A stretch of DNA of 64,000 bases, taken from positions 29,126-93,125 of the forward strand of contig JAWLHX010000003.1 of the NCBI GenBank assembly GCA_041690105.1, given 5' to 3'. The notes below the pieces were generated by a model that worked only from the letters and a program-made list of their open reading frames with translations, was not told the origin of the DNA and ran no database searches. The stretch is from Phycisphaerae bacterium. GTDB lineage: Bacteria; Planctomycetota; Phycisphaerae; FEN-1346; JAACEH01. Both the position numbers and the translations under genes were made by a program. Numbering within the stretch: position 1 is the first letter of the stretch; the number at the start of each line of letters is the position of its first letter. Shown here one piece after another: positions 11,617-25,594 of the stretch.

Positions 11617-12471
11617 TCAGCCGGCGGACTTGTTGGTCAACAGGCAATCCATAACTTCCATCATCCAGGCCACGTCGGTCTCGCCGACCACGCAGTAGGT
11701 AAAGCCACCGGCCTCGGCGGCCACAATGGCGTTACTGGCGAAGGAGCCGACATGATAGCTGCGACCTTCGGCGCTGCCGGCCGTGCTGCCCAGGGCCAGG
11801 CTTTGCACCTTTTCCCGCACGACAATTACGGATATTACGCCGCGATCGCTGTTGAGCACGTAGCTGCCGACCGGCCGATTGCGGAAGTAAGCCGTGCAGC
11901 AACCTCGCAGGTCCATGCCGGCTCCAAGCTCCGGAAAGGCAGGCGTGAAACCCAGTTCCTTCTTAAAAAAGGCGGCCACGGTGGCCGGGTCGGCTGCTTC
12001 GTGCAGCGTCCGGTGCGACGAGAGGTTAGCCTGGTGGATGCCGGCCAGTTCGGCCGATGCGGCCACGGCTGCTTGCGGCGAGCTCAGCTGAAAACCGATC
12101 AGTATGGCGATGGCCACCAGGGCAGCCAGGGCGGCAACGCGCGGAGCAGTGGTCCGAGCAAAGCTATATATCCGCGGTCGCAGCGGTTGCTTGCGATGGT
12201 TGGCGGTCGCGGGCTTGGCGGCGGCAGGTGCGGCGGCCATATTTTCAGCGACTGTGTTCGGTGAAAAGACCGTGCCTCGGATGGCCCCGAGCACGCTCTG
12301 CTTCAGGCCATCATCGGCCCTGATGCTGCCAAAGGCCGACCTGAGCCGGCCGCGCAGAGCCTGCGCCTGTTCGACTTTCTGTCGGCACTGCGTGCAATGC
12401 AGCAGGTGTTCCGGCTGGCTGGCGCCATCGGTCAGAGTCTGCTCGATTTCTTCGGCTGTCAGGTGCGACAT
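11617..12471 (-). CDS. Anti-sigma factor (zinc-finger, single TM)
   Basis: N-terminal HxxxCxxC zinc motif (LLHCTQCRQK), central TM segment; immediately downstream of, and 13 nt overlapping, the ECF sigma gene. Confidence 0.65.
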   Translation of the reverse strand: MSHLTAEEIEQTLTDGASQPEHLLHCTQCRQKVEQAQALRGRLRSAFGSIRADDGLKQSVLGAIRGTVFSPNTVAENMAAAPAAAKPATANHRKQPLRPRIYSFARTTAPRVAALAALVAIAILIGFQLSSPQAAVAASAELAGIHQANLSSHRTLHEAADPATVAAFFKKELGFTPAFPELGAGMDLRGCCTAYFRNRPVGSYVLNSDRGVISVIVVREKVQSLALGSTAGSAEGRSYHVGSFASNAIVAAEAGGFTYCVVGETDVAWMMEVMDCLLTNKSAG

Positions 12472-13061
12472 GAGCGTCTCTCCAGAAATCCCATTTCCCG
12501 GGCATAATCTTCAAGTTTCTCGCGAAGCATCGCCCGCGCCCGGCTGACGCGGCTCTTTACCGTGCCGACGGCAACGCCAAGCACCTCGGCCACCTCCTCC
12601 TGGCTCAGCCCTTCGACATCCGAAAGAAACAGGGCCATGCGGTGCATCTCGGGCAATTCCATCAGCGTGCTTATTACCTGCTGGTCGCTGAACTGTTCCA
12701 GCATGGTGGAAAAATCGGACGTCCCCGCCTCGCCGCCAGTGCCGGGCGAAGGTTCGGCGGCGCTTGGCAGCAGGGTTTCGTCGACGCTCAGCTCGGTGCC
12801 GACGATTTTGCGATGACGCACGCGATCGATCCAGGCATTCCGCATTATTCGCATCATCCATGCCTTGAAGTTGCTTCCCGGCCTGAAGCGCCCGAAGCTC
12901 TCCAGTGCCTTCAGGCAGGCAGCCTGAACCAGATCGCGGGCATCGTGATCGTTGGCCGTCAGGGCGCGAGCCGTGCGCAACAGCGAGTCGAGGTGCGGCA
13001 TTAAAAGCGCCTCGAACTGCTCAGCCCCGTTGGCTGCATCTGGTTGCCTGCTCATACTCAT
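12459..13061 (-). CDS. ECF (sigma-70 family, group 4) RNA polymerase sigma factor
   Basis: Sigma-70 region 2 (DLVQAACLKALESFGRF...AWMMRIMRNAWIDRVR) and region 4 HTH (LSQEEVAEVLGVAVGTVKSRVSRAR). Confidence 0.85.
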   Translation of the reverse strand: MSMSRQPDAANGAEQFEALLMPHLDSLLRTARALTANDHDARDLVQAACLKALESFGRFRPGSNFKAWMMRIMRNAWIDRVRHRKIVGTELSVDETLLPSAAEPSPGTGGEAGTSDFSTMLEQFSDQQVISTLMELPEMHRMALFLSDVEGLSQEEVAEVLGVAVGTVKSRVSRARAMLREKLEDYAREMGFLERRSCRT

Positions 13062-13326: not shown

Positions 13327-14013
13327 TTAGTGATGAGCCGGCCTGGTGGCTGGGGCCGGTGCGTCATGGCCGGTTTTCTGGGCATCGAGCCGGGCCTGTT
13401 TCTCGGCATCGGTCAGGGCGTCCCACTTATCGGGGCAGCCGGCGCAGCAGAAGGCGATTGTCTGGCCCTTGTACTGCCGCGTCAGCTCGGGCTTTACCTT
13501 GTCAGGATCGATGCGGCCTTCCATGATCGGGCAAAGCTTGTTGGCCGGAGCGGCGGCATGGCGACCCATCGGGCAGTTCTTCATCTGCTCCTTCAGGCCG
13601 GTCATGACAGCCTGGGCCTTAACCAACTCAGCGGTCGCGGTCTGGGCATCGCCACCGGCGGCTGCCTTATGGGCCGAATTAATCAGCGTCTCGAGTTCGG
13701 CAATCTTTTTGTGCGGCGACATCGGACACTTCTGGCACTGCTCTCCTTCGCACTTTTTGGCGTCCTCGGCCTTGTCGCCATCGGCTTTAGCGGCCATCAT
13801 CGGACAACCCTTTTTGCCCTCGTCGGTGGCGGCCTTGGCCGGGCAACAGCCCTTTGCTTGCTCGGCCGCGCCTTCTTTGGCTACTGCCTGGTGTCCGCCG
13901 TGGCCTCTGGCCGCGGGTTCCACAGCACCGGTGCTGATGGTCCAGAAAGCGCCAATGGCCAGAGCCAAGGCGATCATGCTCAGCAGCATCATTTTCCCAT
14001 TCGGAATTCTCAT
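13327..14013 (-). CDS. Secreted metal-binding protein with Cys-Pro-Met (CPM) repeats and a C-terminal YHS/TRASH domain (putative copper-binding chaperone)
   Basis: Start chosen at internal ATG 14013 (GGAGG RBS 9 nt upstream; MRIPNGKMMLLSMIALALAIGAFW signal peptide). Motifs GCCPAK, GCPMMAAK, CQKCPMS, NCPMGRH and a C-terminal CPIMEGRIDPDKV...YKGQTIAFCCAGCPDKW (YHS-like). Divergent from the efflux operon. Confidence 0.6.
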   Translation of the reverse strand: MRIPNGKMMLLSMIALALAIGAFWTISTGAVEPAARGHGGHQAVAKEGAAEQAKGCCPAKAATDEGKKGCPMMAAKADGDKAEDAKKCEGEQCQKCPMSPHKKIAELETLINSAHKAAAGGDAQTATAELVKAQAVMTGLKEQMKNCPMGRHAAAPANKLCPIMEGRIDPDKVKPELTRQYKGQTIAFCCAGCPDKWDALTDAEKQARLDAQKTGHDAPAPATRPAHH

Positions 14014-14174
14014 CGTGTGTAACCTCCTGCTAATGCTCAAGGTAAGAACCTGCTTCCGGCCCCCCGTGAGACCGGACTTCTGTCTGCTCGACCTCCAAAA
14101 CGTGCGGCGGGACGGAAAGGTTCCAATATTTTTCAGGAACATTCTGGCCCGGCCTGTCCGTTGATGATGATAGC

Positions 14175-15740
14175 ATGAAGACTCACATGGTCCGTTTTCA
14201 CCAGGAGGAGGAGCTTCCGCTAATGGCGAACCGCCTTTACCCGATCATCATAATGACTGCCATTCTGACTGTCGCCGCCGGCTGCACCGAAGGTTTCGGT
14301 CCTTCCAGAGCCGGGGCGGGCGAGCCTTCAACCTTGCACTATAGTCGCGCAGCCTCCGAGCGGCCGCGCACAAATATGGCTTCACGGGTGGCAGAGCTTG
14401 GGCCACAGTCGACGCTCGACGATTACATCCAGCACGCCCTGCTGAACAATCCGCAGCTTGAGGCCCAGTTCAAACGGTGGAAGGCGGCCCTGGAAGGCGG
14501 CACCATCGAGGGCACGCTGCCCGATCCGCAGTTCACCTATACCTACTTTATTGTACGCATGGGGGCCGGCCCGGCCATGGAGCAGCGGCAGCGCATGGCC
14601 CTGACGCAGGTCTTTCCGTGGTTCGGCAAGTTGCGGCTGCGCAGCCAGCAGGCCATGGACCTGGCCGCCGCCGAGGAGCAGAGGTTCCAGGCTCAGCGTC
14701 TGCAGCTCATCTACCAGGTTGCCGATGCCTGGTACGATTATTATTATCTGGCCCGCTCGGTGGAGAATACCCGGCAGGTGCGCCAGTTGACCGAGCACAT
14801 GGAAGGCGTGGCCCGGGCCCGCTACAGGGCTGCCGATACGGATCATGCCGATGTCATCCGAGCCCAGATAGAGCTGGGCCGCCTGGATGATCAGCTGGCT
14901 TCGCAGGAGGATTTGCGTCGCCCGCTGGTGGCCAGGCTGAATGCTCTGCTTAACCGGCCGACGGGGGCAGAGCTGCCCGTGCCGCCGGCCATGGAGCCGG
15001 CCCAGGTGCAGCTTGACGAGGAGCAGTTGCTGCAGTTAGCCGACAGGGCGAACCCCGAGTTGCAGGCCATTGATCATGAGAATGCGAGTCGCCGACGGGC
15101 GGTCGATCTGGCTCGCAAGCAGTATTATCCGGATGTAATGCTGGGCCTGGAGTGGATGGACATGACCGTAATGCCCGGCAGGCGTGGCGTATCCAGCGAA
15201 GACAATTGGACGTTAATGGCGGGCATCAACGTGCCCATCTGGCGGCACAAGTACGCGGCCCAGGAGCGTCAGGCCCGTTTCAGGCACATGGCCGGGCAGC
15301 GCCAGCGGGAGAATGCAGCCAATCAGCTTCAGGCCGAATTGCGGCGTGTGTTCTACGACATCCGCGACGCCGAGCGGCGCATCAACCTCTACGGCGACAC
15401 CCTGTTGCCGCGAGCCCGCGATTCGGTGCAGGTGACCGAGGCCGGCTTCCGGGCCGGTACGTCCACATTCCTTGATCTGCTGGATTCGCTGCGCGTACTG
15501 CTGGAGTTCGAATTGTCGTATCAGCAGGCCGTTGCCATGCATGGCCGCCGTCTGGCCGAGTTGCAGAAGCTGAGCGGCAGCACGGCCGCGCCTTTTTCCG
15601 GGAACGTTCCAGAGTCCCCGTCCGTTCAGACAGGTGATGCCGGCTTGCAGGCAGAGCCGGTGAAGGTGGATTCTATTGTTCCGGAAGAAGGTGGCGATGA
15701 ACTTCGAGTGGATGAACGGACTGTTACGGAAGGGCAGTAA
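14175..15740 (+). CDS. Outer-membrane efflux protein (TolC/CusC/CzcC family)
   Basis: Lipoprotein signal (LTVAAGCTEG; the true start may be the internal ATG ~14223). Two long coiled-coil/helical repeats typical of outer-membrane factors; first gene of the efflux operon. Confidence 0.75.
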   Translation: MKTHMVRFHQEEELPLMANRLYPIIIMTAILTVAAGCTEGFGPSRAGAGEPSTLHYSRAASERPRTNMASRVAELGPQSTLDDYIQHALLNNPQLEAQFKRWKAALEGGTIEGTLPDPQFTYTYFIVRMGAGPAMEQRQRMALTQVFPWFGKLRLRSQQAMDLAAAEEQRFQAQRLQLIYQVADAWYDYYYLARSVENTRQVRQLTEHMEGVARARYRAADTDHADVIRAQIELGRLDDQLASQEDLRRPLVARLNALLNRPTGAELPVPPAMEPAQVQLDEEQLLQLADRANPELQAIDHENASRRRAVDLARKQYYPDVMLGLEWMDMTVMPGRRGVSSEDNWTLMAGINVPIWRHKYAAQERQARFRHMAGQRQRENAANQLQAELRRVFYDIRDAERRINLYGDTLLPRARDSVQVTEAGFRAGTSTFLDLLDSLRVLLEFELSYQQAVAMHGRRLAELQKLSGSTAAPFSGNVPESPSVQTGDAGLQAEPVKVDSIVPEEGGDELRVDERTVTEGQ

Positions 15741-18519
15741 GGCGCGAAAAGTGGCTTCGCTGGTCCTGCTGGCGGCAATTGCCCTGCTGGTAGGCTACGC
15801 GCTTTATCCGATTGTCGCTCCTCGGACCTCCGATGAGGGTGATAGTCATGACCATGTTGCCGTCGGCGAGTCCAAGACCGTCTGGACCTGCTCCATGCAC
15901 CCGCAGATCCAGTTTACCGAGCCAGGCCTCTGCCCCATATGCTTCATGGATCTTATTCCGTTGAAAGACGGCGGCGATAAAGCTGCCATGCGGCGAATCA
16001 GCGTCAGCCAGGAGGCGGCCAAGCTGCTCGATATCGAGACGGCGCTGGTTGCGCGTCGCCCGGTCACTCGCCCGGTGCGTATGGTGGGGCAGGTGGATTA
16101 CGACGAGACGCGGCTGAAGGAAATTACCGCCTGGGTCGGTGGACGACTCGACCGGCTTTACGTCGACTTTACCGGCGTCACGGTCCGCCAGGGCGACCAC
16201 TTGGCCGAACTCTACAGCCCGGAACTGCTCGGCGCCCAGCAGGAACTGCTGCAAGCGGTGCAGAGCGTGCGCGAACTCGACGCCCGCGGCCAGTCCGGCA
16301 ACCAGGGAATTGTGGCCGCATCGGTACGCGGCACCTTGGAGGCCAGTCGCGACAAGCTGCGCCTTCTGGGGCTCTCGGACGACCAGATACGCCAGATTGA
16401 AAGCTCCGGCCAGGCCAGCGATCACGTTACCATCAGCTCGCCCATCAGCGGCATTGTCATCGAAAAAAACGTGCAGCAGGGCACCTACGTGGAGACCGGC
16501 ACGCCTATCTACAAGGTGGCCGACCTGTCGCAGGTGTGGGTCAGGCTGGATGCCTACGAGGCCGATCTGCCGTGGCTGCGTTACGGTCAGCAGGTCAGCT
16601 TTACCAGCGAGTCGCTGCCCGGCGAGGAGTTCCAGGGCACCATCACTTTTATTGATCCCGTGCTGACCGAGCAGACGCGGACGGTGAAGCTGCGCGTGAA
16701 CGTGGCCAACCCCGATCTGCGGCTGAAGCCGGGCATGTTTGTGCGGGCCGTGGTCGAAAGCTCGCTGAATGCCGCGGGCGCGGCCTCGGGCCCGGATCTG
16801 ACCGGAAAATGGATTTCGCCGATGCACCCCGAGATCATCAAAGACGGTCCCGGCGAGTGCGACGTTTGCGGCATGCCGCTGGTGCCGGCCGAGTCGCTTG
16901 GCCTTGCCGGTTCGGCTTCCGACGACAACGGGCTTCCGCTGGCCATTCCGGCCTCGGCCGTCCTACAGACTGGCAAGCGGGCCGTGGTCTACGTGCAGGT
17001 CGATCCGTTTCGTTTCGATGCGGCCAGCGTGACCGATTGGCCGGAGCTTGTGGCCCGTCTGCGGAAGTTCGGCCAAGGCCAGCATGGCGGCAATTCCGAC
17101 ATCCCGGCCGACCCGGCCCTGCGACTGTGGCAGATGATCGACCCTGATATTCGCCGGGCGGTAGTGGACTGGAATCCGGACTCCGAGCCGTCGCCGGAAC
17201 TTAAGCGGGCTCTTCTGGCCGACTTCAACCGCTTGCTCCAGCGGCGCGATCTGTATCAGCCGCAACACTGGCAAAACATCAGCCTGAGCGACCAGGCCCA
17301 AGGGCTGCTGCGGCGCGGCGTCGATAACTTGCCGCACGATCGTCTCGCGCGGCTCAATCGTCTGCTGATAGAGTCGGCCCTGCCTGATCAGCTGGCCTCC
17401 AGTGTCGATCGGCCCACTTTCGAAGGTCGGCAAATTGTCCTGGGGCCGCGGGCCGGCGATCATTTTATTGTCGCTCATGGTTTGCACGAAGGGCAGCGCG
17501 TAGTGACTCGCGGGCAGTTCAAGCTGGACAGCGAGCTTCAGATCAAGGCCAAGCCCAGCATGATGTCGCCCGAAGCTGGCAGCGGGGCGGCGGCTGGCGC
17601 TGGTCACGATCATGGTGGCGGCGAGGCCACTGAAGCGCCCGCAGCGACCGCACCGTCTCCGTCTGGAAAGGTTGAGTTGCCCGGGCTGGTCCGGCCGCAG
17701 ATGCGGGCGGTTGTGCAGGCCGGGCAGGAGTTGCAGGAGGCTGCCGGGGGCGATGATCTTGCGGCCCTGCACGGGGCGTTTGCCGAGTTGGCCCGGGCCG
17801 TCGAGCAGGTGGCCATCGAGAACCTGAGCGGCGAGTCGCTGGGCTGGTGGCGCGAGTACGCCATGCTGCTGGGCAACGATATTTTCGAAGGCCGTCAGGC
17901 CGGCGACCTGCAGCAGGCGCGGCAACTGGCCGCCCAGGCCGAAAAGCATCTGGCAGCCATGCAGAGCACGTTTGGTCTGGATGAGCACGGTGCGGCCGGC
18001 GGCGCGGCCAATCCTCAATTCAATCGGCAGCTTGATGCCGTGGTCCAGAACTACCTGTCCATGCAGGAGTCGCTGGCCCACGACGAGCCGGTGGCCCGCA
18101 GCAAGGAAATTGCAGCCGCCATGAGCCAGGCTATTGCCGCAGTCGACATGAAGCTGCTGAAGGGCGAGGACCACGATGTCTGGATGCAGCGTTCGGGCGC
18201 AATGAACCAGGCCCTCGGTAAGATGGCCGGCACTGAGGATATTGAGGCCGCACGTGTGCGCTTTGAGACTATCAGCGATGCACTGATTGTTTTGCTGCAG
18301 CGCTTCGGTGCACCGGGCGGCAAGGAGTTGTACATCGCCCATTGCCCGATGGCCTTTGACAATGCCGGGGCCGACTGGATTCAGGCCCAGCAACGCATTT
18401 TGAATTCTTACGAAGGCGAGCGCATGCTCCGCTGCGGGTCGATCAAGGACGTTATCGCTCCCTCGGCCGAGGCCGCCGATGGCGCCGCCACCGCCACGGA
18501 CGAGCACCAGGGGCATTAG
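15676..18519 (+). CDS. Heavy-metal efflux membrane fusion protein (CusB/CzcB-like) with two heavy-metal-binding domains and a C-terminal DUF3347-like extension
   Basis: The track start is an alternative codon; a likely ATG start is at ~15698 (MNFEWMNG...). N-terminal TM. Two HMBD motifs (WTCSMHPQIQFTEPGLCPICFMDL and WISPMHPEIIKDGPGECDVCGMPL), HlyD-like beta-barrel/lipoyl region, then a ~380-aa tail ending ...YIAHCPMAFDNAGADWIQ, typical of DUF3347. Confidence 0.7.
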   Translation: MFRKKVAMNFEWMNGLLRKGSKARKVASLVLLAAIALLVGYALYPIVAPRTSDEGDSHDHVAVGESKTVWTCSMHPQIQFTEPGLCPICFMDLIPLKDGGDKAAMRRISVSQEAAKLLDIETALVARRPVTRPVRMVGQVDYDETRLKEITAWVGGRLDRLYVDFTGVTVRQGDHLAELYSPELLGAQQELLQAVQSVRELDARGQSGNQGIVAASVRGTLEASRDKLRLLGLSDDQIRQIESSGQASDHVTISSPISGIVIEKNVQQGTYVETGTPIYKVADLSQVWVRLDAYEADLPWLRYGQQVSFTSESLPGEEFQGTITFIDPVLTEQTRTVKLRVNVANPDLRLKPGMFVRAVVESSLNAAGAASGPDLTGKWISPMHPEIIKDGPGECDVCGMPLVPAESLGLAGSASDDNGLPLAIPASAVLQTGKRAVVYVQVDPFRFDAASVTDWPELVARLRKFGQGQHGGNSDIPADPALRLWQMIDPDIRRAVVDWNPDSEPSPELKRALLADFNRLLQRRDLYQPQHWQNISLSDQAQGLLRRGVDNLPHDRLARLNRLLIESALPDQLASSVDRPTFEGRQIVLGPRAGDHFIVAHGLHEGQRVVTRGQFKLDSELQIKAKPSMMSPEAGSGAAAGAGHDHGGGEATEAPAATAPSPSGKVELPGLVRPQMRAVVQAGQELQEAAGGDDLAALHGAFAELARAVEQVAIENLSGESLGWWREYAMLLGNDIFEGRQAGDLQQARQLAAQAEKHLAAMQSTFGLDEHGAAGGAANPQFNRQLDAVVQNYLSMQESLAHDEPVARSKEIAAAMSQAIAAVDMKLLKGEDHDVWMQRSGAMNQALGKMAGTEDIEAARVRFETISDALIVLLQRFGAPGGKELYIAHCPMAFDNAGADWIQAQQRILNSYEGERMLRCGSIKDVIAPSAEAADGAATATDEHQGH

Positions 18520-18654: not shown

Positions 18655-21600
18655 ATGAGGTTTGGTACATTGTCTGATAACCTGCAGCAGAACAACCTGA
18701 CGCCTGAGCAGCGTGGCCTTATCGGTCGCCTTATCGGCTTCTGCCTGAAGAACCGCCTGGTGGTCTTTCTGTCCACGCTGCTGATTGCCGGCCTGGGCCT
18801 GCTTGTGGCTCCGTTCGACTGGCAGATTGAGGGCGTGGCCCGCTATCCGATTCCCGTCGACGCCATTCCGGATATTGGCGAAAATCAGCAGATTGTCTTC
18901 ACCTCCTGGCCAGGCCGCTCGCCGCAGGATGTCGAGGATCAGGTCACTTACCCGCTGACGGTCGCCCTGCAGGGTTTGCCGCAGGTAAAGGTAGTGCGCA
19001 GCGTGTCGATGTTCGGCTTCTCGTCAATCTACGTGATCTTCAATGACAATGTCGACTTCTACTGGTCGCGCTCGCGGGTGCTGGAAAAGCTGCGCAGTCT
19101 GCAGGCCGACACATTGCCCGACGACGTGCGCCCGGTGCTCGGCCCCGACGCCACGCCGCTGGGGCAGATTTACTGGTATACGCTGCAGGGTCGCGATGCC
19201 GACGGCAATCCCGCCGGCGGCTGGGACCTGGAAGAGTTGCGCACGCTGCAGGACTGGTATGTGCGCTATTGGCTGCAGGCGGCGGAAGGCGTGTCGGAAG
19301 TGGCCAGCGTGGGTGGCTATCAGCGCGAGTACCAGATTGACGTCGACCCCGATGCCATGCGGGCCTACGGCGTTACGCTGAACGATGTTTACCGGGCCGT
19401 CAAGGGCTCCAACCTGGATGTCGGGGCCCGATCGGTAGAAATTAACCGCGTCGAGTACTTCATACGCGGCATCGGTTTTATCAAGGACACCTCGGACATC
19501 GAAGACAGCGTCATCCGGGTCAACGCCGACAATGTGCCGGTGGTGGTGAGCAACGTGGCCCGGGTCAGCCTGGGGCCGGCCGAGCGTCGCGGGGCGCTGG
19601 ACAAAGGCGGATCGCAGGCCGTTGGCGGCGTGGTCGTGGCTCGTTATGGCAGCAATCCGCTGGCTGTCATTCGCAACGTAAAGCAGCGCATAGAGGAAAC
19701 TCGCGAGAGTCTGCCGACCAAGGCCGTGGTCGACTTCGGCCAGGTGGACCGCCGACAGGTGGCCGATTATGCAGCCGAGCACGGCTTCAGGGCCTTCGCC
19801 GACGATCGCTCGATGGATCACGAGGCCTGGCTTGCTCATCTGCGGAGCCAGCCGCGCGAGCAGTGGCCGGCCTGGGTCAATACCAGCACGGTTACTGTGG
19901 TGCCTTTCTACGACCGCACGGGGCTGATTTACGAGACCCTTGGCACGCTGAATTCGGCCCTTGTGCAGCAGGTGCTCATCTGCACGATTGTCGTCATCCT
20001 GATGGTCATGCACCTGCGCAGCAGCATCCTCATCAGCGGTATGCTGCCTCTGAGCATTCTGCTGACTTTCATCGGCATGCGCCTGGTGGGGGTTGACGCG
20101 AATGTGGTATCGCTGGCCGGCATTGCCATTGCCATAGGCACGGTGGTCGACGTGGGCATTGTTATTGTCGAAAACATGCTGCGCCATCTCAGCGAGGCCG
20201 CGCCCGAGGAGTCGCGCCTCAATGTGCTGCACCGGGCGGCCGCCGAGCATGGTGGGGCGGTTGTCACGGCTTCGCTGACCACCATCATCGGCTTTCTGCC
20301 AGTCTTTACGCTCACGGCGGCCGAGGGCAAAATGTTCCGCCCGCTGGCCTGGACCAACACGCTGGCCTCGGTTGCCTCCATCATCATCGCCCTGACCATA
20401 CTGCCGGCCGCGGCCTACGTGCTTTTCTGCATCAAACACCAGGACGCCAAGCTGCGGCGTCATGTTCTGCATGGACTGCTGGTGGCGGTGGGCGTGGTTG
20501 TGGGTTTCCTGCTTTCGTGGTGGGCGGGGCTGGCCCTGCTGTTTTTCGGCAGCTTCTACATTATCCGCGACATACTGCCGCAAAGGGCCGCCCGTTGGGC
20601 TCCGCGGCTGGCCAACCTGCTGGCCGTGGCCTTTGTGGGCATACTGCTGAGCTGGTATTGGGAACCACTGGGCGTGGAGCGCGGTTTGCTGCGCAATATC
20701 ATTTTCGTCGGTGGCATCCTGGGCCTGCTGCTGGGCAGCGCCTGGCTGTTTCAGCACTACTACACGCGGATTCTGGCCTGGTGCCTCGATCATAAGGCGG
20801 CCTTTCTGTCGCTGCCATTGGCCATTGCCGTGGCCGGCCTGCTGATCTGGCTGGGGCCGAAGATGTTTCTGGGCCCGCTCGACGCCACGCCGCAAATGAG
20901 CGACGCCCAGTATCAGCAGGCCTCGCTTCTGGAGCGCGGCCGCTATAACTGGAACCGAAGTGTCGACCGGGTTATCGGCGGCTTCAAAAAGGACCTCGCC
21001 CAGATTCGCAACGAGCCCTGGGCCGATGATTCGGCTCCGGCCGACCGCTGGATCAGCAATCGCGGCATTGTGGCCCGATTTAAGTGGACGCTGGCTCGCG
21101 CCTGGAACGGTATTGGCCGCGAATTCATGCCGCCGCTGGATGAGGGCTCGTACCTTTACATGCCCACCACCATGGCCCACGCCTCCATTGGCGAGGTGCT
21201 GGATGCCATGGGCAAGCAGGATATGGCCTTCCAGAATATTCCGGAAGTCGAGTCGGTGGTCGGCAAGCTGGGGCGGGCAGAGTCGGCCCTGGACCCGGCA
21301 CCTACCAGCATGATCGAGACGGTCATCAACTATAAGAGCGAGTACATTACCGACCGCAATGGCCGGCGGGTCAACTTCCGCTACGACCGATCCAGCGGCC
21401 AGTTTGCCCGCGACGACCGTGGCGAGCTGATCCCCGACCCGCGCGGCCGGCCGTTCCGCCAGTGGCGCGACCATATCCGCACGCCGGACGACATCTGGGA
21501 CGAAATCCTGATGGCTGCCGAAATTACCGGCACCACCTCGGCCCCGCGCCTGCAACCGATTGCTGCCCGTATTGTGATGCTGCAGAGCGGCATGCGGGCG

Positions 21601-22776
21601 CCCATGGGTGTAAAGGTGACCGGGCCCAGCCTGGAGGCCATCGAAGACTTTGCCCGGCAGATCGAAACTCATCTGAAGGACGTGCCGACCGTCATGGCCG
21701 ATGCCGTAGTGGCCGACCGTATTGTCGGTACGCCATACCTGGAGATTGTGCCCGACCGCAACGCCCTTAAGCGCTACGGCGTCACCATCGACGCTTTTCA
21801 GCAGGTGGTGGAGGTGGCCATCGGCGGCCGCCCGGTAACCCGCACAGTGGAGGGCCGCGAACGTTTCCCGGTACGCGTCCGTTACCCGCGCGAGTTGCGC
21901 AGTTCGGTCGATGATATCGACGGCATTCTCTTCAGCGGGTCGGGCGGGGCCCAGATTCCGCTGGCCCAACTGGCCGAGATTCGCTACGTCCGCGGCCCGC
22001 AGATGATCCGCAGCGAAGACACCTTCCTGACCGGCTACGTGCTGTTCGACATGCTGCCGGGCAATGCCGAGGTGGACGTGGTAGAGGCGGCCCGCGATCA
22101 TCTGCAAAAAATGGAAGAGCAGGGCCGCTTGCTGCGCCCACGCGGAGTGAGCTACGAGTTTGCCGGCTCCTACCAGAACCAGGTGCGGGCCTCGCAGCGG
22201 CTCATGCTTATACTGCCGCTGGCCCTGCTGGTGATCTTCCTGATCATTTACCTGCAGTTTCGCCGCACGACGACCACGCTGCTGGTCTTCTCGGGCATTG
22301 CTGTCGCCTGGGCCGGCGGATTCATCATGCTGTGGCTCTACGATCAGCCCTGGTTCCTGGAGTTCAGCGTCTTCGGGGTGCCCATGCGAACGCTCTTTCA
22401 GGTGGGCACGGTCAACCTGAGCGTGGCCGTCTGGGTAGGCTTTCTGGCCCTTTTCAGCATTGCTACCGACGACGGCGTGGTCATGGGAACTTACCTGGAA
22501 CAGGTCTTCCGCGAAGATCGCCCGCGCAGCATCAGCGACATACGCAAAATGGTCGTGCTGGCCGGCAGTCGCCGCGTTCGGGCCTGCCTGATGACCACCC
22601 TGACCACCACGCTGGCCCTGCTGCCGGTCATGACCTCGCAGGGACGGGGCAGCGACATCATGTTGCCCATGGCCATACCCACCTTTGGCGGCATGACCAT
22701 CGCCATCATCACCATGCTGGTGGTGCCGGTGCTTTACGGCTGGCTCCAGGAGCGCAAGTTCCGCCGCTCGCAGTAG
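18655..22776 (+). CDS. Heavy-metal efflux RND permease (CusA/CzcA, HME family), unusually long (1373 aa)
   Basis: 12-TM RND architecture with HME-family blocks (VVENMLRHL, AIAIGTVVDVGIVIVEN); about 330 extra residues in periplasmic loops compared with ~1045-aa CusA/CzcA. The antisense 1027-aa ORF is a shadow. Confidence 0.85.
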   Translation: MRFGTLSDNLQQNNLTPEQRGLIGRLIGFCLKNRLVVFLSTLLIAGLGLLVAPFDWQIEGVARYPIPVDAIPDIGENQQIVFTSWPGRSPQDVEDQVTYPLTVALQGLPQVKVVRSVSMFGFSSIYVIFNDNVDFYWSRSRVLEKLRSLQADTLPDDVRPVLGPDATPLGQIYWYTLQGRDADGNPAGGWDLEELRTLQDWYVRYWLQAAEGVSEVASVGGYQREYQIDVDPDAMRAYGVTLNDVYRAVKGSNLDVGARSVEINRVEYFIRGIGFIKDTSDIEDSVIRVNADNVPVVVSNVARVSLGPAERRGALDKGGSQAVGGVVVARYGSNPLAVIRNVKQRIEETRESLPTKAVVDFGQVDRRQVADYAAEHGFRAFADDRSMDHEAWLAHLRSQPREQWPAWVNTSTVTVVPFYDRTGLIYETLGTLNSALVQQVLICTIVVILMVMHLRSSILISGMLPLSILLTFIGMRLVGVDANVVSLAGIAIAIGTVVDVGIVIVENMLRHLSEAAPEESRLNVLHRAAAEHGGAVVTASLTTIIGFLPVFTLTAAEGKMFRPLAWTNTLASVASIIIALTILPAAAYVLFCIKHQDAKLRRHVLHGLLVAVGVVVGFLLSWWAGLALLFFGSFYIIRDILPQRAARWAPRLANLLAVAFVGILLSWYWEPLGVERGLLRNIIFVGGILGLLLGSAWLFQHYYTRILAWCLDHKAAFLSLPLAIAVAGLLIWLGPKMFLGPLDATPQMSDAQYQQASLLERGRYNWNRSVDRVIGGFKKDLAQIRNEPWADDSAPADRWISNRGIVARFKWTLARAWNGIGREFMPPLDEGSYLYMPTTMAHASIGEVLDAMGKQDMAFQNIPEVESVVGKLGRAESALDPAPTSMIETVINYKSEYITDRNGRRVNFRYDRSSGQFARDDRGELIPDPRGRPFRQWRDHIRTPDDIWDEILMAAEITGTTSAPRLQPIAARIVMLQSGMRAPMGVKVTGPSLEAIEDFARQIETHLKDVPTVMADAVVADRIVGTPYLEIVPDRNALKRYGVTIDAFQQVVEVAIGGRPVTRTVEGRERFPVRVRYPRELRSSVDDIDGILFSGSGGAQIPLAQLAEIRYVRGPQMIRSEDTFLTGYVLFDMLPGNAEVDVVEAARDHLQKMEEQGRLLRPRGVSYEFAGSYQNQVRASQRLMLILPLALLVIFLIIYLQFRRTTTTLLVFSGIAVAWAGGFIMLWLYDQPWFLEFSVFGVPMRTLFQVGTVNLSVAVWVGFLALFSIATDDGVVMGTYLEQVFREDRPRSISDIRKMVVLAGSRRVRACLMTTLTTTLALLPVMTSQGRGSDIMLPMAIPTFGGMTIAIITMLVVPVLYGWLQERKFRRSQ

Positions 22777-23379: not shown

Positions 23380-24837
23380 GTGCATTACGACAATCTGCAA
23401 CAGCTTCTGCAACGTTACGAGGCGGCCGGCGAGGTCTGCCGCATTACGGCCGAGGTCGACCCGGAGCTGGAGATTACCGAAATTGCCGACCGCCAGGTAA
23501 AGAGCGGCGGGCCGGTGCTGTGGTTCGACCGGGTTCGCGGCTCGTCCATGCCGCTGGTTATTAACACCTTCGCCTCGGCCCGTCGCACGGCCTGGGCCTT
23601 GGGAGTCGAGCATTGCGATGAGATCGGCCGGCGTATCGGCGAGTTGCTCAAGCCCCGGCGCCCTGAAGGCCTGGTCGATAAGGTCCGCAGTCTGGCCGAG
23701 GTGGTTGAACTGTCGCGCTGGGGGCCGCGACTGACCGACCGGGCCCCATGCCAGGAGGTGGTCCTGACCGGCTCCGAGGCATCGCTCGACTTACTGCCCA
23801 TACTCAAGTGCTGGCCCGGCGATGGCGGCCGATTCATCACCCTGGGCGGAGTTTACACTGCTCCTCCCGGCGGTGGCCCGCTGAATGCCGGAATGTACCG
23901 GCTTCAGGTTTACGATGCCCGCACAACCGGCATGCACATCCATGCTCATCATGACGGCTGGCGGCACTACCGGCAATGGGAACAGGCCGGCGAGCCGATG
24001 CCTGCGGCCGTGGTGCTTGGCGGCGATCCGGCGGTCATTTATGCCGCCACCGCGCCCATGCCACCGGGCCTGGACGAAATGCTGCTGGCCGGCTTCATTC
24101 GGCGAAAAGCAGTCGACATGGTCCGCTGCAAAACCGTTGACCTGCAGGTGCCGGCCCAGGCCGAGATTGTCATCGAGGGCACCGTGGCCGCCGGCGAGCG
24201 ACGCACCGAAGGCCCCTTTGGCGATCACACCGGCTATTACAGTCTGAAGGATGAGTACCCGATTTTCCGCGTCTCGGCCATTACCCATCGCCGCGATGCC
24301 ATCTACCCCACAACCATTGTCGGCCGCCCGCCAATGGAAGATTGCTTCCTGGGCAAGGCCACCGAGCGAATCTTCCTGCCGATGATGCGGACCATTCTGC
24401 CGGAGGTGGTCGATTACGACCTGCCGCTGTTTGGCGTCTTCCACAACTTCGTCTTCGTCGCCATTCGCAAGGCCTACGCTTACCATGCCCGCAAAGTCAT
24501 GCACGCCCTGTGGGGCATGGGGCAGATGATGCTGAGCAAGTTCATCATCGTGGTGGATGACGATACCGACGTGCACAGCGTGGACGAGGTTATGTGGCGG
24601 GTGGGCAACAATGTCGATCCGGAGCGCGACATCGAGTTTACGCGCGGCCCGCTCGATGCCCTGGATCATGCCAGTCCGCAGCCGCTGGCCGGATCGAAGA
24701 TGGGTATCGACGCCACCCGAAAATGGCAGGGCGAGGGCCAGGTGCGGCCGTGGCCGGACGATATTCGCATGAAGCCGGAGATTGTCGACCTGGTGACGCG
24801 CCGCTGGAAGGAATACGGTTTCGATGGCCAGGGCTGA
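23380..24837 (+). CDS. ubiD: UbiD-family decarboxylase (menaquinone/ubiquinone biosynthesis; futalosine-pathway late step)
   Basis: 485 aa with the UbiD N-terminal block (EVCRITAEVDPELEITEIADR...GGPVLWFD) and prFMN-binding region; operon context with UbiX, UbiA and UbiE. Confidence 0.85.
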   Translation: MHYDNLQQLLQRYEAAGEVCRITAEVDPELEITEIADRQVKSGGPVLWFDRVRGSSMPLVINTFASARRTAWALGVEHCDEIGRRIGELLKPRRPEGLVDKVRSLAEVVELSRWGPRLTDRAPCQEVVLTGSEASLDLLPILKCWPGDGGRFITLGGVYTAPPGGGPLNAGMYRLQVYDARTTGMHIHAHHDGWRHYRQWEQAGEPMPAAVVLGGDPAVIYAATAPMPPGLDEMLLAGFIRRKAVDMVRCKTVDLQVPAQAEIVIEGTVAAGERRTEGPFGDHTGYYSLKDEYPIFRVSAITHRRDAIYPTTIVGRPPMEDCFLGKATERIFLPMMRTILPEVVDYDLPLFGVFHNFVFVAIRKAYAYHARKVMHALWGMGQMMLSKFIIVVDDDTDVHSVDEVMWRVGNNVDPERDIEFTRGPLDALDHASPQPLAGSKMGIDATRKWQGEGQVRPWPDDIRMKPEIVDLVTRRWKEYGFDGQG

Positions 24838-25594
24838 CGAAACAGGCGCAAAGTCGGCGGCCGACGTGCAACAGATGTTCGACCAGATTGCGCCGCGGTA
24901 CGATCTGCTGAATCATCTGCTGAGCGGCGGCCTGGATGTGCTGTGGCGGAGGCGGGCGGCCCGGCTGGCCAGCCAGGGGCTCGTCGGTCAAGCGGGCGAG
25001 GCGCCGCTGGTAATCGATTTGTGTTGCGGCACTGGCGATTTATCGGCCGCCCTGGCTCGACGACTGGCGTCATCGGGCGGGGCCGCGGGGCGAGTGATAG
25101 GGCTGGATTTTTCGCCGGCCATGGTGGCCCAGGCCGTGCGAAAGTTCCGCCGGCATCGGAACTTGGAGTTTCTGGTGGGCGATGCCCTGGCGGTTCCGCT
25201 GGCGGACGGCTCGGCCAGCGCCGTGACCTGTGCCTTCGGCATGCGCAACGTGGCCAGCGTGGAATTGTTCGTCCGGCAGTGCTGTCGCCTGCTGCGTCCG
25301 GGCGGCCGGCTGGTGGTGCTGGAGTTTTTTCGCCGCCGGCGAGGTTTGCGACAATCGCTTTTCGACTTCTATTTCCGGCGCATTGTTCCTATTCTGGGGC
25401 GATGCGTATCGGGGCACCGGTCGGCTTACAGTTATCTGCCGAGCTCGGTTGCCGGATTTCTCTCGGCCGATGATTTTGCAGAAATGCTGAAGGCCGCGGG
25501 ATTGCAGCAGATTGAGACCAGAACATTGGCGGGCGGCGCGGCAACAATTGTTTGCGGCGTCACTGCAACTGATGCCGAAGGAGGCTGCAAGTGA
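24824..25594 (+). CDS. ubiE: Demethylmenaquinone/ubiquinone C-methyltransferase (UbiE/MenG family)
   Basis: FDQIAPRYDLLNHLLSGGLDVLWRR and SAM-binding VIDLCCGTGD motifs; overlaps the ubiD-like gene by 14 nt. Confidence 0.85.
   Translation: MARADETGAKSAADVQQMFDQIAPRYDLLNHLLSGGLDVLWRRRAARLASQGLVGQAGEAPLVIDLCCGTGDLSAALARRLASSGGAAGRVIGLDFSPAMVAQAVRKFRRHRNLEFLVGDALAVPLADGSASAVTCAFGMRNVASVELFVRQCCRLLRPGGRLVVLEFFRRRRGLRQSLFDFYFRRIVPILGRCVSGHRSAYSYLPSSVAGFLSADDFAEMLKAAGLQQIETRTLAGGAATIVCGVTATDAEGGCK

Follow-up and report, generated by a model that had tools for sequence, protein, structure and literature searches.

Does a metal-efflux adaptor that carries extra metal-type domains on its own chain reflect a peculiarity of one genome, or a different way of handling Cu(I) and Ag(I) in the periplasm? 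The question is raised by a 64,000-nucleotide stretch of DNA from a Phycisphaerae bacterium (contig JAWLHX010000003.1, positions 29,126 to 93,125; hereafter the window), in which a gene at 15697..18519 on the + strand encodes a membrane fusion protein, the adaptor of a resistance-nodulation-division (RND) pump, joined in frame to two heavy-metal-binding domains (HMBDs) and to a C-terminal region containing DUF3347. Cu/Ag efflux by CusCFBA is the textbook periplasmic metal relay, and the textbook rests on enterobacterial proteins. We find that the layout of HMBDs, adaptor core, and DUF3347 is ordinary for the large clade in which it occurs. From residue conservation and genomic association, we slightly favor the view that the protein is a CusB-type adaptor with a tethered DUF3347 module that binds periplasmic Cu(I)/Ag(I) and either donates the metal or signals its load.

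Domain architecture of the adaptor

The frame containing the gene is open throughout 15676..18519 (+), with zero internal stops. An earlier note on this DNA had described a 947-aa open reading frame (ORF) from 15676, where the frame has a TTG; the likeliest start is the in-frame ATG at 15697, giving a 940-aa product that is 100% identical to database protein P0001 (residue numbers below refer to this product; adding 7 converts them to the 947-aa numbering). Nucleotide composition is uniform along the gene. The central claim of the note, that an adaptor core, two HMBDs, and DUF3347 share one chain, is borne out by Pfam matches to HlyD_D23 (E 1.2e-75; aa 130-356 in the 947-aa numbering), HMBD (PF19335; E 1.2e-21 over two stretches; 76.8 bits, gathering score 23.6), and DUF3347 (PF11827; aa 782-872, or 789-879 in the 947-aa numbering, E 9.6e-17; 62.1 bits, gathering score 25.5), so that both accessory domains pass the profile check that the note had proposed.

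The protein falls in the RND adaptor family by its score with the NCBIfam model TIGR01730 (RND_mfp), 122.4 bits where 94.9 are required; HlyD_3 matches as well (E 8e-21), and in Pfam HlyD_D4 alone remains sub-threshold (E 0.008). The NCBIfam CusB subfamily model NF007303 gives 104.7 bits against a 390-bit cut-off, and therefore, by that measure, the adaptor is neither a CusB orthologue nor a member of the enterobacterial CusB subfamily. CusB and ZneB lead the PDB matches, whether ranked by sequence or by fold, with the CusB alignment spanning residues 58-348. In the AlphaFold2 model (mean predicted local distance difference test score [pLDDT] 86.6; predicted TM-score 0.75) the four-domain adaptor fold is complete, with hairpin helices at 175-237 and strands of the membrane-proximal (MP) domain at 414-435 and 574-605, and Foldseek comparison with CusB 3ne5_C returns a target-normalised TM-score of 0.78. 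An N-terminal transmembrane (TM) anchor at aa 14-43 (15736..15825, +) is indicated by a hydropathy scan, a modelled helix at 15-40, and Lys/Arg-rich residues before it, and by the positive-inside rule the remainder of the chain is predicted to be periplasmic. The first MP strand, beta-barrel, lipoyl domain, and alpha-hairpin occupy aa 97-365 (15985..16791, +), the region of the HlyD_D23 and HlyD_3 matches, with pLDDT mostly >90. The MP domain itself comes in two parts, aa 401-433 (16897..16995, +; modelled strands 415-418 and 428-435) and aa 573-625 (17413..17571, +; modelled strands 574-605). Our homolog search gave 5913 matches at E<=1e-5, and the best 120 supplied both the alignment and the architecture count used here; in that alignment the consensus passes directly from aa 433 to aa 573. 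The second MP part matches the SilB MP construct 5a4g (E 5e-5), and P620, M622, and M623 at its end are invariant.

The flanking genes complete a tripartite system in the order outer-membrane factor (OMF), adaptor, RND pump. On the 5' side is a TolC/OEP-family gene (14175..15740, +; 521 aa; Pfam OEP, E 1.4e-42), the product of which has a lipobox-like AAGC signal at its N-terminus and the 3' end of which overlaps the adaptor start by 44 nt. On the 3' side is a CusA-type RND pump gene (18655..22776, +; 1373 aa), scoring 716 bits against a cut-off of 701 with TIGR00914 (CusA/CzcA) and matching E. coli CusA at E 1.4e-164. In CusA, M573, M623, and M672 are the methionines of the Cu(I)/Ag(I) site, and their equivalents here, by hand count on the alignment, are M836, M886, and M975. 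A scan of one genome per species yielded 478 stretches with relatives, of which the best 80 are the related loci counted below; the Met-triad equivalents are invariant in 64/64 full-length pumps of these loci. The retained CusA triad points to Cu/Ag specificity. Taken together, the gene product is best explained as the inner-membrane-anchored adaptor, periplasmic by prediction, of a tripartite CusCBA-type pump for Cu(I)/Ag(I) efflux.

The two HMBDs differ in their position and in one ligand-type residue. HMBD1 (aa 59-90; 15871..15966, +) presents C65, M67, H68, C79, C82, and M84, each kept in 119-120/120 homologs, whereas HMBD2 (aa 366-400; 16792..16896, +), inserted between the beta-barrel and the MP domain, presents S374, M376, H377, C388, C391, and M393. 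Among the homologs H377, C388, and C391 are invariant, M376 and M393 are found in at least 117/120, and the residue at 374 is Cys in 83, Ser in 33, and Gly in 4. The ligand pattern C-x-M-H...C-x-x-C-x-M is complete in HMBD1, and HMBD2 has Ser for the first Cys and keeps M376, C391, and M393. The earlier note was right to count two such modules but wrong in giving both as CxxHP...CP.CGM; they read C-S-M-H-P...C-P-I-C-F-M and S-P-M-H-P...C-D-V-C-G-M, neither fitting literally. In the HMMER alignment, M67, C82, and M84 of HMBD1 fall exactly on M49, M64, and M66, the Cu(I)/Ag(I) ligands of E. coli CusB. A further match of HMBD1 is to the N-terminal domain of Legionella CopA (LpCopA; 8ovl_A, E 6e-4; also 3rfu). 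By nuclear magnetic resonance, the LpCopA HMBD binds Ag+/Cu+ through M44, C59, and M61 of C-x-M-H...C-x-x-C-x-M (PMC11970713), and this Met/Cys/Met set is conserved in both adaptor HMBDs.

Beyond the MP domain, the earlier note had drawn a C-terminal extension of ~380 aa. There is indeed an in-frame tail with DUF3347, but a stretch of that length also takes in the second half of the MP domain and a 139-aa insertion before the linker, two helical bundles, and tail are reached; the true post-adaptor extension is ~315 aa. It begins with a disordered Gly/Ala/Pro-rich linker of ~40 residues (aa 626-665; 17572..17691, +), with pLDDT <50 over 619-655 and an H637-x-H639 motif (H637 in 79/120 and H639 in 94/120 homologs). 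The first bundle, D1 (aa 666-775; 17692..18021, +), is a degenerate DUF3347-type four-helix bundle that lacks a Cys/Met motif; its four helices lie within 666-759 and are modelled with pLDDT >90. On its own D1 gives no Pfam match and is seen only through profile-profile comparison, which aligns it to D2 as a homologous repeat (hhalign probability 99.4%, E 3.9e-21). D2 (aa 776-920; 18022..18456, +) holds the Pfam match and consists of the DUF3347 four-helix bundle (~773-870) and a small beta motif (878-920), and it has the motif that D1 is missing, C883-P-M885 ... W894 ... N903-P-Y905 ... M910-x-x-C913. Written as CPM...W...NPY.G..M..CG, it shows no variation in an alignment of 90 DUF3347 sequences, fused and free, with C883, M885, W894, M910, and C913 constant in both forms. 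In the 120-homolog alignment M818, H826, and M830 are also conserved, in the turn between helices 2 and 3 of D2, and from the up-down topology of the bundle these residues and the motif would share one pole. The chain closes with a His-containing tail ending DEHQGH (aa 921-940; 18457..18516, +).

DUF3347 in fused and free form, and its possible role

The earlier note regarded this architecture as atypical, a view that the homologs contradict: approximately 116 of the best 120 carry PF19335 and PF11827 with the adaptor domains, most being 755-800 aa long, and it is likewise the majority form among the related loci. DUF3347 is present on the adaptor in 61/80 of these, as one unit in 41, two in 18, and three in 2, and in 56 of the 61 a single unit keeps the invariant Cys/Met motif. 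The hosts span Phycisphaerae, Pirellulaceae, Pontiella/Kiritimatiellia, Limisphaerales, Hydrogenedentota, Aminicenantes, and Calditrichia, so that the phyla with loci of this type include Planctomycetota and Verrucomicrobiota; isolate genomes with the fusion include those of Pirellulaceae (Stieleria, Neorhodopirellula, and Aporhodopirellula). Gammaproteobacterial relatives (e.g., Congregibacter) have two HMBDs and are without DUF3347. The nearest relative locus, at 55% identity, is in a Phycisphaerae metagenome-assembled genome, which by itself makes a planctomycete source of the window probable. The architecture is common in databases and undescribed in the literature searched.

DUF3347 also occurs alone, as the earlier note had said of small proteins encoded beside metal-efflux genes. 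A search with D2 alone, limited to 25 matches by its word prefilter and serving to find free forms rather than as a census, recovered proteins of ~170-200 aa that have a signal peptide and a His-rich tail and share the Cys/Met motif of D2, in the form HCPMAFDNxGxxWxQ...NPYFGxxMLRCG; they are 35-40% identical to D2. The string HCPMAFD...W, put forward earlier as the mark of DUF3347, is thus common to the free proteins but lies outside the Pfam DUF3347 model. One free DUF3347 protein, secreted and 188 aa long, is encoded in a related locus (L081) immediately downstream of the RND gene in an operon of the order OEP, adaptor, RND; it has the same motif, and the adaptor of this operon already carries a DUF3347 of its own. 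The corresponding position in the Congregibacter brevis locus (L065), after the RND gene, is occupied by a CusF-like lipoprotein gene (13721..14209, +), a single case, in a locus whose adaptor is without DUF3347. A phmmer search with an E. coli CusF query, which is weaker than a Pfam scan, found no CusF-like ORF in the 64-kb window, and the same query found none in 79/80 related loci. CusF itself is a separate protein in E. coli, and in Cupriavidus metallidurans it is joined to the C-terminus of SilB (PMC4446572); the fused-or-free pattern of DUF3347 parallels this by analogy. D2 is not itself a CusF-type metallochaperone, as defined by an OB fold (oligonucleotide/oligosaccharide-binding), a His/Met/Met/Trp site, and similarity to CusF: it is a four-helix bundle with no CusF match, and any resemblance would be one of functional analogy only.

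The most plausible reading of these observations is a built-in periplasmic metal-handling module, because the domain is found in fused and separate forms, its Cys, Met, and Trp residues are invariant, the tether is flexible, no cusF was found, and the pump retains the CusA Met triad; that metal is transferred at all, and in which direction, we infer. The adaptor core would work as in CusB, bridging the CusA-like pump and the outer-membrane channel, and HMBD1 would supply a three-sulfur metal site from M67, C82, and M84, the counterpart of that in CusB. D2, with an invariant Cys-Pro-Met ... Trp ... Met-x-x-Cys cluster predicted at one pole, would capture periplasmic Cu(I)/Ag(I) and then either deliver it to the HMBDs and the pump Met triad or report the metal load to them. 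It would take the place of the free chaperone CusF, much like the CusF-like domain fused to SilB. D1 and D2 would hang together on the ~40-residue disordered, Met/His-containing tether, and the helical insertion in the MP domain has no assigned role in this scheme.

Several points weigh against it. A structure search with the D2 model finds no solved-structure relative beyond generic four-helix bundles, and therefore the fold transfers no function. The literature searched holds no functional study of DUF3347/PF11827 (nor of PF19335 or the HMBD+CusB combination), the sole mention of DUF3347 being an unrelated streptococcal protein. The closeness of C883, M885, M910, and C913 is argued from the topology of the model only, and in the oxidising periplasm C883 and C913 could pair as a structural disulfide. 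Some of the added modules seem to bind no metal, as D1 lacks the Cys/Met motif and the MP insertion lacks metal-ligand conservation; the absence of a CusF-like gene, too, carries the limits of its query. Lastly, the extra domains of the adaptor could be sensors and not relay stations, since the study of LpCopA assigned its homologous HMBD a regulatory role, the release of autoinhibition, rather than that of an ion donor (PMC11970713).

This last point underlies an alternative that we think unlikely but deserving of attention, in which HMBD2 and DUF3347 are metal sensors or switches, with binding shifting the adaptor conformation and licensing the pump without any hand-off of the ion. Conserved residues and a tether suit sensing as well as they suit delivery, and the free DUF3347 of L081, encoded beside an adaptor that has the domain already, fits poorly with simple replacement of a chaperone. 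However, a free secreted DUF3347 protein is more natural as a diffusible chaperone than as an intramolecular switch, and without CusF the role of donor would stay unfilled. We consider it improbable that DUF3347 is instead a non-metal structural or interaction module, with a C883-C913 disulfide stapling the beta motif and the bundles acting as spacers or docking surfaces (for instance in assembly of a hexameric adaptor ring or in envelope contacts). Pairs of invariant periplasmic cysteines do often form disulfides, the fold is a generic four-helix bundle, and both D1 and a bundle in the MP hairpin of Pirellulaceae relatives are retained without the Cys/Met motif; but the invariant Met885, Met910, and Trp894 beside the cysteines make up a typical soft-metal ligand set, the free forms have His-rich tails, and DUF3347 is essentially confined to Cu/Ag-type heavy-metal-efflux RND operons with HMBDs, some relatives also having YHS-like modules. 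Weaker still is the idea that the repeats are a SilE-like periplasmic buffer or sponge, adding binding capacity around the pump but handing the metal to no specific partner: the number of units does vary from 1 to 3 among relatives, and linkers and tails are Met/His-rich, but only one unit has the invariant motif in 56/61 loci, and the domains are well folded whereas SilE is disordered. An assembly or frameshift artefact, with the tail a separate gene, has nothing in its favor beyond the existence of free DUF3347 genes elsewhere, and we reject it as vanishingly improbable given the continuous frame, the uniform composition, and the recurrence of this fusion, its linker conserved, in separately assembled genomes of dozens of species, isolates included.

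Returning to the tethered metal-handling module, a broader proposal is possible, and we advance it only tentatively: DUF3347 may be a so far unrecognised kind of metallochaperone or sensor for periplasmic Cu(I)/Ag(I) that replaces CusF, free or tethered, in Planctomycetota, Verrucomicrobiota, and allied phyla, and the MP hairpin would then be a place at which accessory modules dock repeatedly (a DUF3347-like bundle, a YHS/TRASH-like module, or a helical domain of ~125 aa). A very large set of environmental bacteria, among them Planctomycetota, Verrucomicrobiota/Kiritimatiellia, Hydrogenedentota, and Aminicenantes, is without CusF and has HMBDs and DUF3347 on the adaptor. A role for DUF3347, once shown, would give a function to a widespread DUF and would test the chaperone-to-adaptor-to-pump logic with an unrelated fold. 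The adaptor gene described here is one well-modelled example and brings nothing unique to that question; the parts worth following are the function of DUF3347 and the uncatalogued insertion domain.

The hairpin insertion, the pump, and neighboring genes

What separates this adaptor from most of its relatives, and was overlooked in the earlier note, is the all-helical insertion of 139 aa in the hairpin of the MP domain (aa 434-572; 16996..17412, +), defined by the alignment and modelled with pLDDT mostly >90. It is present in only 15/120 homologs. Nothing in Pfam-A or NCBIfam matches it, and profile searching of the PDB gave no significant result. The domain itself (~125 aa) is found in 697 cluster representatives at E<=1e-3 (69 at E<=1e-10), in proteins of 129 to 1910 aa that hold 1 to ~10 copies each, many of them with signal peptides. 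Across 87 carriers it accompanies 61 different Pfam families, most commonly ABC-2 permeases, which have the domain in the TM1-TM2 loop, followed by PorV, BamB-like, leucine-rich-repeat, and solute-binding proteins. The consensus is ...DW..L...RIW.LL...LN..L..RD.Y...L..EA..LL...RLNRLLLEAA.P, with RLNRLLLE at the end almost invariant, and the homologs show no conservation of metal ligands. These findings indicate a domain family of considerable size that neither Pfam-A nor NCBIfam covers. We considered whether the insertion is recently acquired or mobile DNA and rejected this, as its composition is like that of the rest of the gene, orthologous insertions are no more than 53-68% identical overall, and there is only one copy in the window.

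Other modules occupy the same site. Four to six adaptor homologs (among them P0004, P0018, P0019, and P0063) have a 55-aa YHS/TRASH-like module nested within the insertion, and relatives in the Pirellulaceae/Planctomycetaceae (L002-L005, L016, L033; e.g., L002 2444..5086) have in this MP hairpin a different insertion of ~100 aa, which forms a DUF3347-like four-helix bundle (hhalign 98.2%, E 3e-14 against D1). Because different modules are found in the same hairpin, we regard the MP hairpin as a recurrent insertion hot spot.

At 1373 aa the pump is considerably longer than CusA (~1050 aa). Approximately 180 of the extra residues lie between TM6 and TM7 and contribute about three added hydrophobic segments (aa 602-637, 677-700, and 713-742), with smaller insertions at aa 355-413 and 895-932. 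A tie between the long pump and the extra domains of the adaptor was considered and rejected; pumps of 1190-1420 aa are the norm throughout the related loci, with or without DUF3347 or the insertion on the adaptor.

Upstream of the OMF gene and divergent from it is a gene for a 271-aa Cys-rich protein (13327..14142, -). The protein has a hydrophobic segment near its N-terminus, contains three CPM motifs, and ends in a YHS/TRASH-like module, for which the Pfam YHS match is weak (E 0.086). The C-terminus of this product is 53-60% identical (E ~1e-16) to the module nested in the hairpin insertion of the adaptor homologs, and because the same module appears in both settings the gene probably belongs functionally with the pump. 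Downstream of it on the same strand are an extracytoplasmic function (ECF) sigma factor gene (12459..13061, -; Sigma70_r2/r4_2 and Sigma70_ECF matches) and, overlapping its end, a gene for a 284-aa protein (11617..12471, -) with an H-x3-C-x2-C (ZAS-like) motif and a hydrophobic segment. These two are likely a sigma/anti-sigma pair, judging from their sequence features, and could regulate the efflux operon. Directly 3' of the operon, at 23380..25594 (+), are genes for a UbiD-family decarboxylase and a UbiE/COQ5 methyltransferase, with no apparent relation to it. GC skew is ~0 over 1 to ~34 kb of the window and then steadily positive (0.08-0.20) up to the window end; the shift at ~34000 may mark a changed gene-strand bias or a replication landmark.

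Comparison with known efflux systems

Among characterized adaptors, E. coli CusB (PDB 3H94, 3NE5) has a similar four-domain core (sequence E 5e-24) and the same operon logic of OMF, adaptor, and CusA-type pump. The N-terminal metal site of CusB is homologous to HMBD1, but in the adaptor described here it is a full, Cys-containing HMBD; CusB has a cleaved signal where this protein has a TM anchor, and CusB is without the second HMBD, the 139-aa MP insertion, and the ~315-aa C-terminal extension with its two DUF3347 bundles. Relative to E. coli CusCFBA as an operon, no cusF gene was found in the 64-kb window with the E. coli CusF query. Adaptors of the ZneB/CzcB type (PDB 3LNN) are also alike in the core (E 6e-19 by sequence, with ZneB the best Foldseek match), but they serve divalent-cation pumps, whereas the pump of this operon retains the CusA Met triad for Cu(I)/Ag(I). 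The HMBDs belong to the same family, with the same ligand pattern, as the N-terminal domain of Legionella CopA (PDB 8OVL), which is cytoplasmic and regulates a P-type ATPase; here there are two copies, predicted to be periplasmic, in an RND adaptor.

Free DUF3347 proteins (PF11827) have the same bundle and motif as D2, which differs in being tethered, duplicated (with D1 degenerate), and without a signal peptide of its own. The closest conceptual match is SilB of C. metallidurans CH34, to whose C-terminus a CusF-like metallochaperone domain is fused (Bersch et al. 2011, as cited in PMC4446572). In concept the two agree: each is a heavy-metal RND adaptor bearing at its C-terminus a domain for metal handling, putative in the present case, that exists free in other operons. 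The adaptor of this locus is nevertheless not a SilB-type fusion in the sense of a CusF-homologous C-terminal domain, as its only SilB match is the MP domain (5a4g). The fused domain of SilB is of the CusF OB-type beta-barrel kind, whereas in the Phycisphaerae adaptor it is a DUF3347 four-helix bundle with a Cys/Met beta motif, a putative metal binder.

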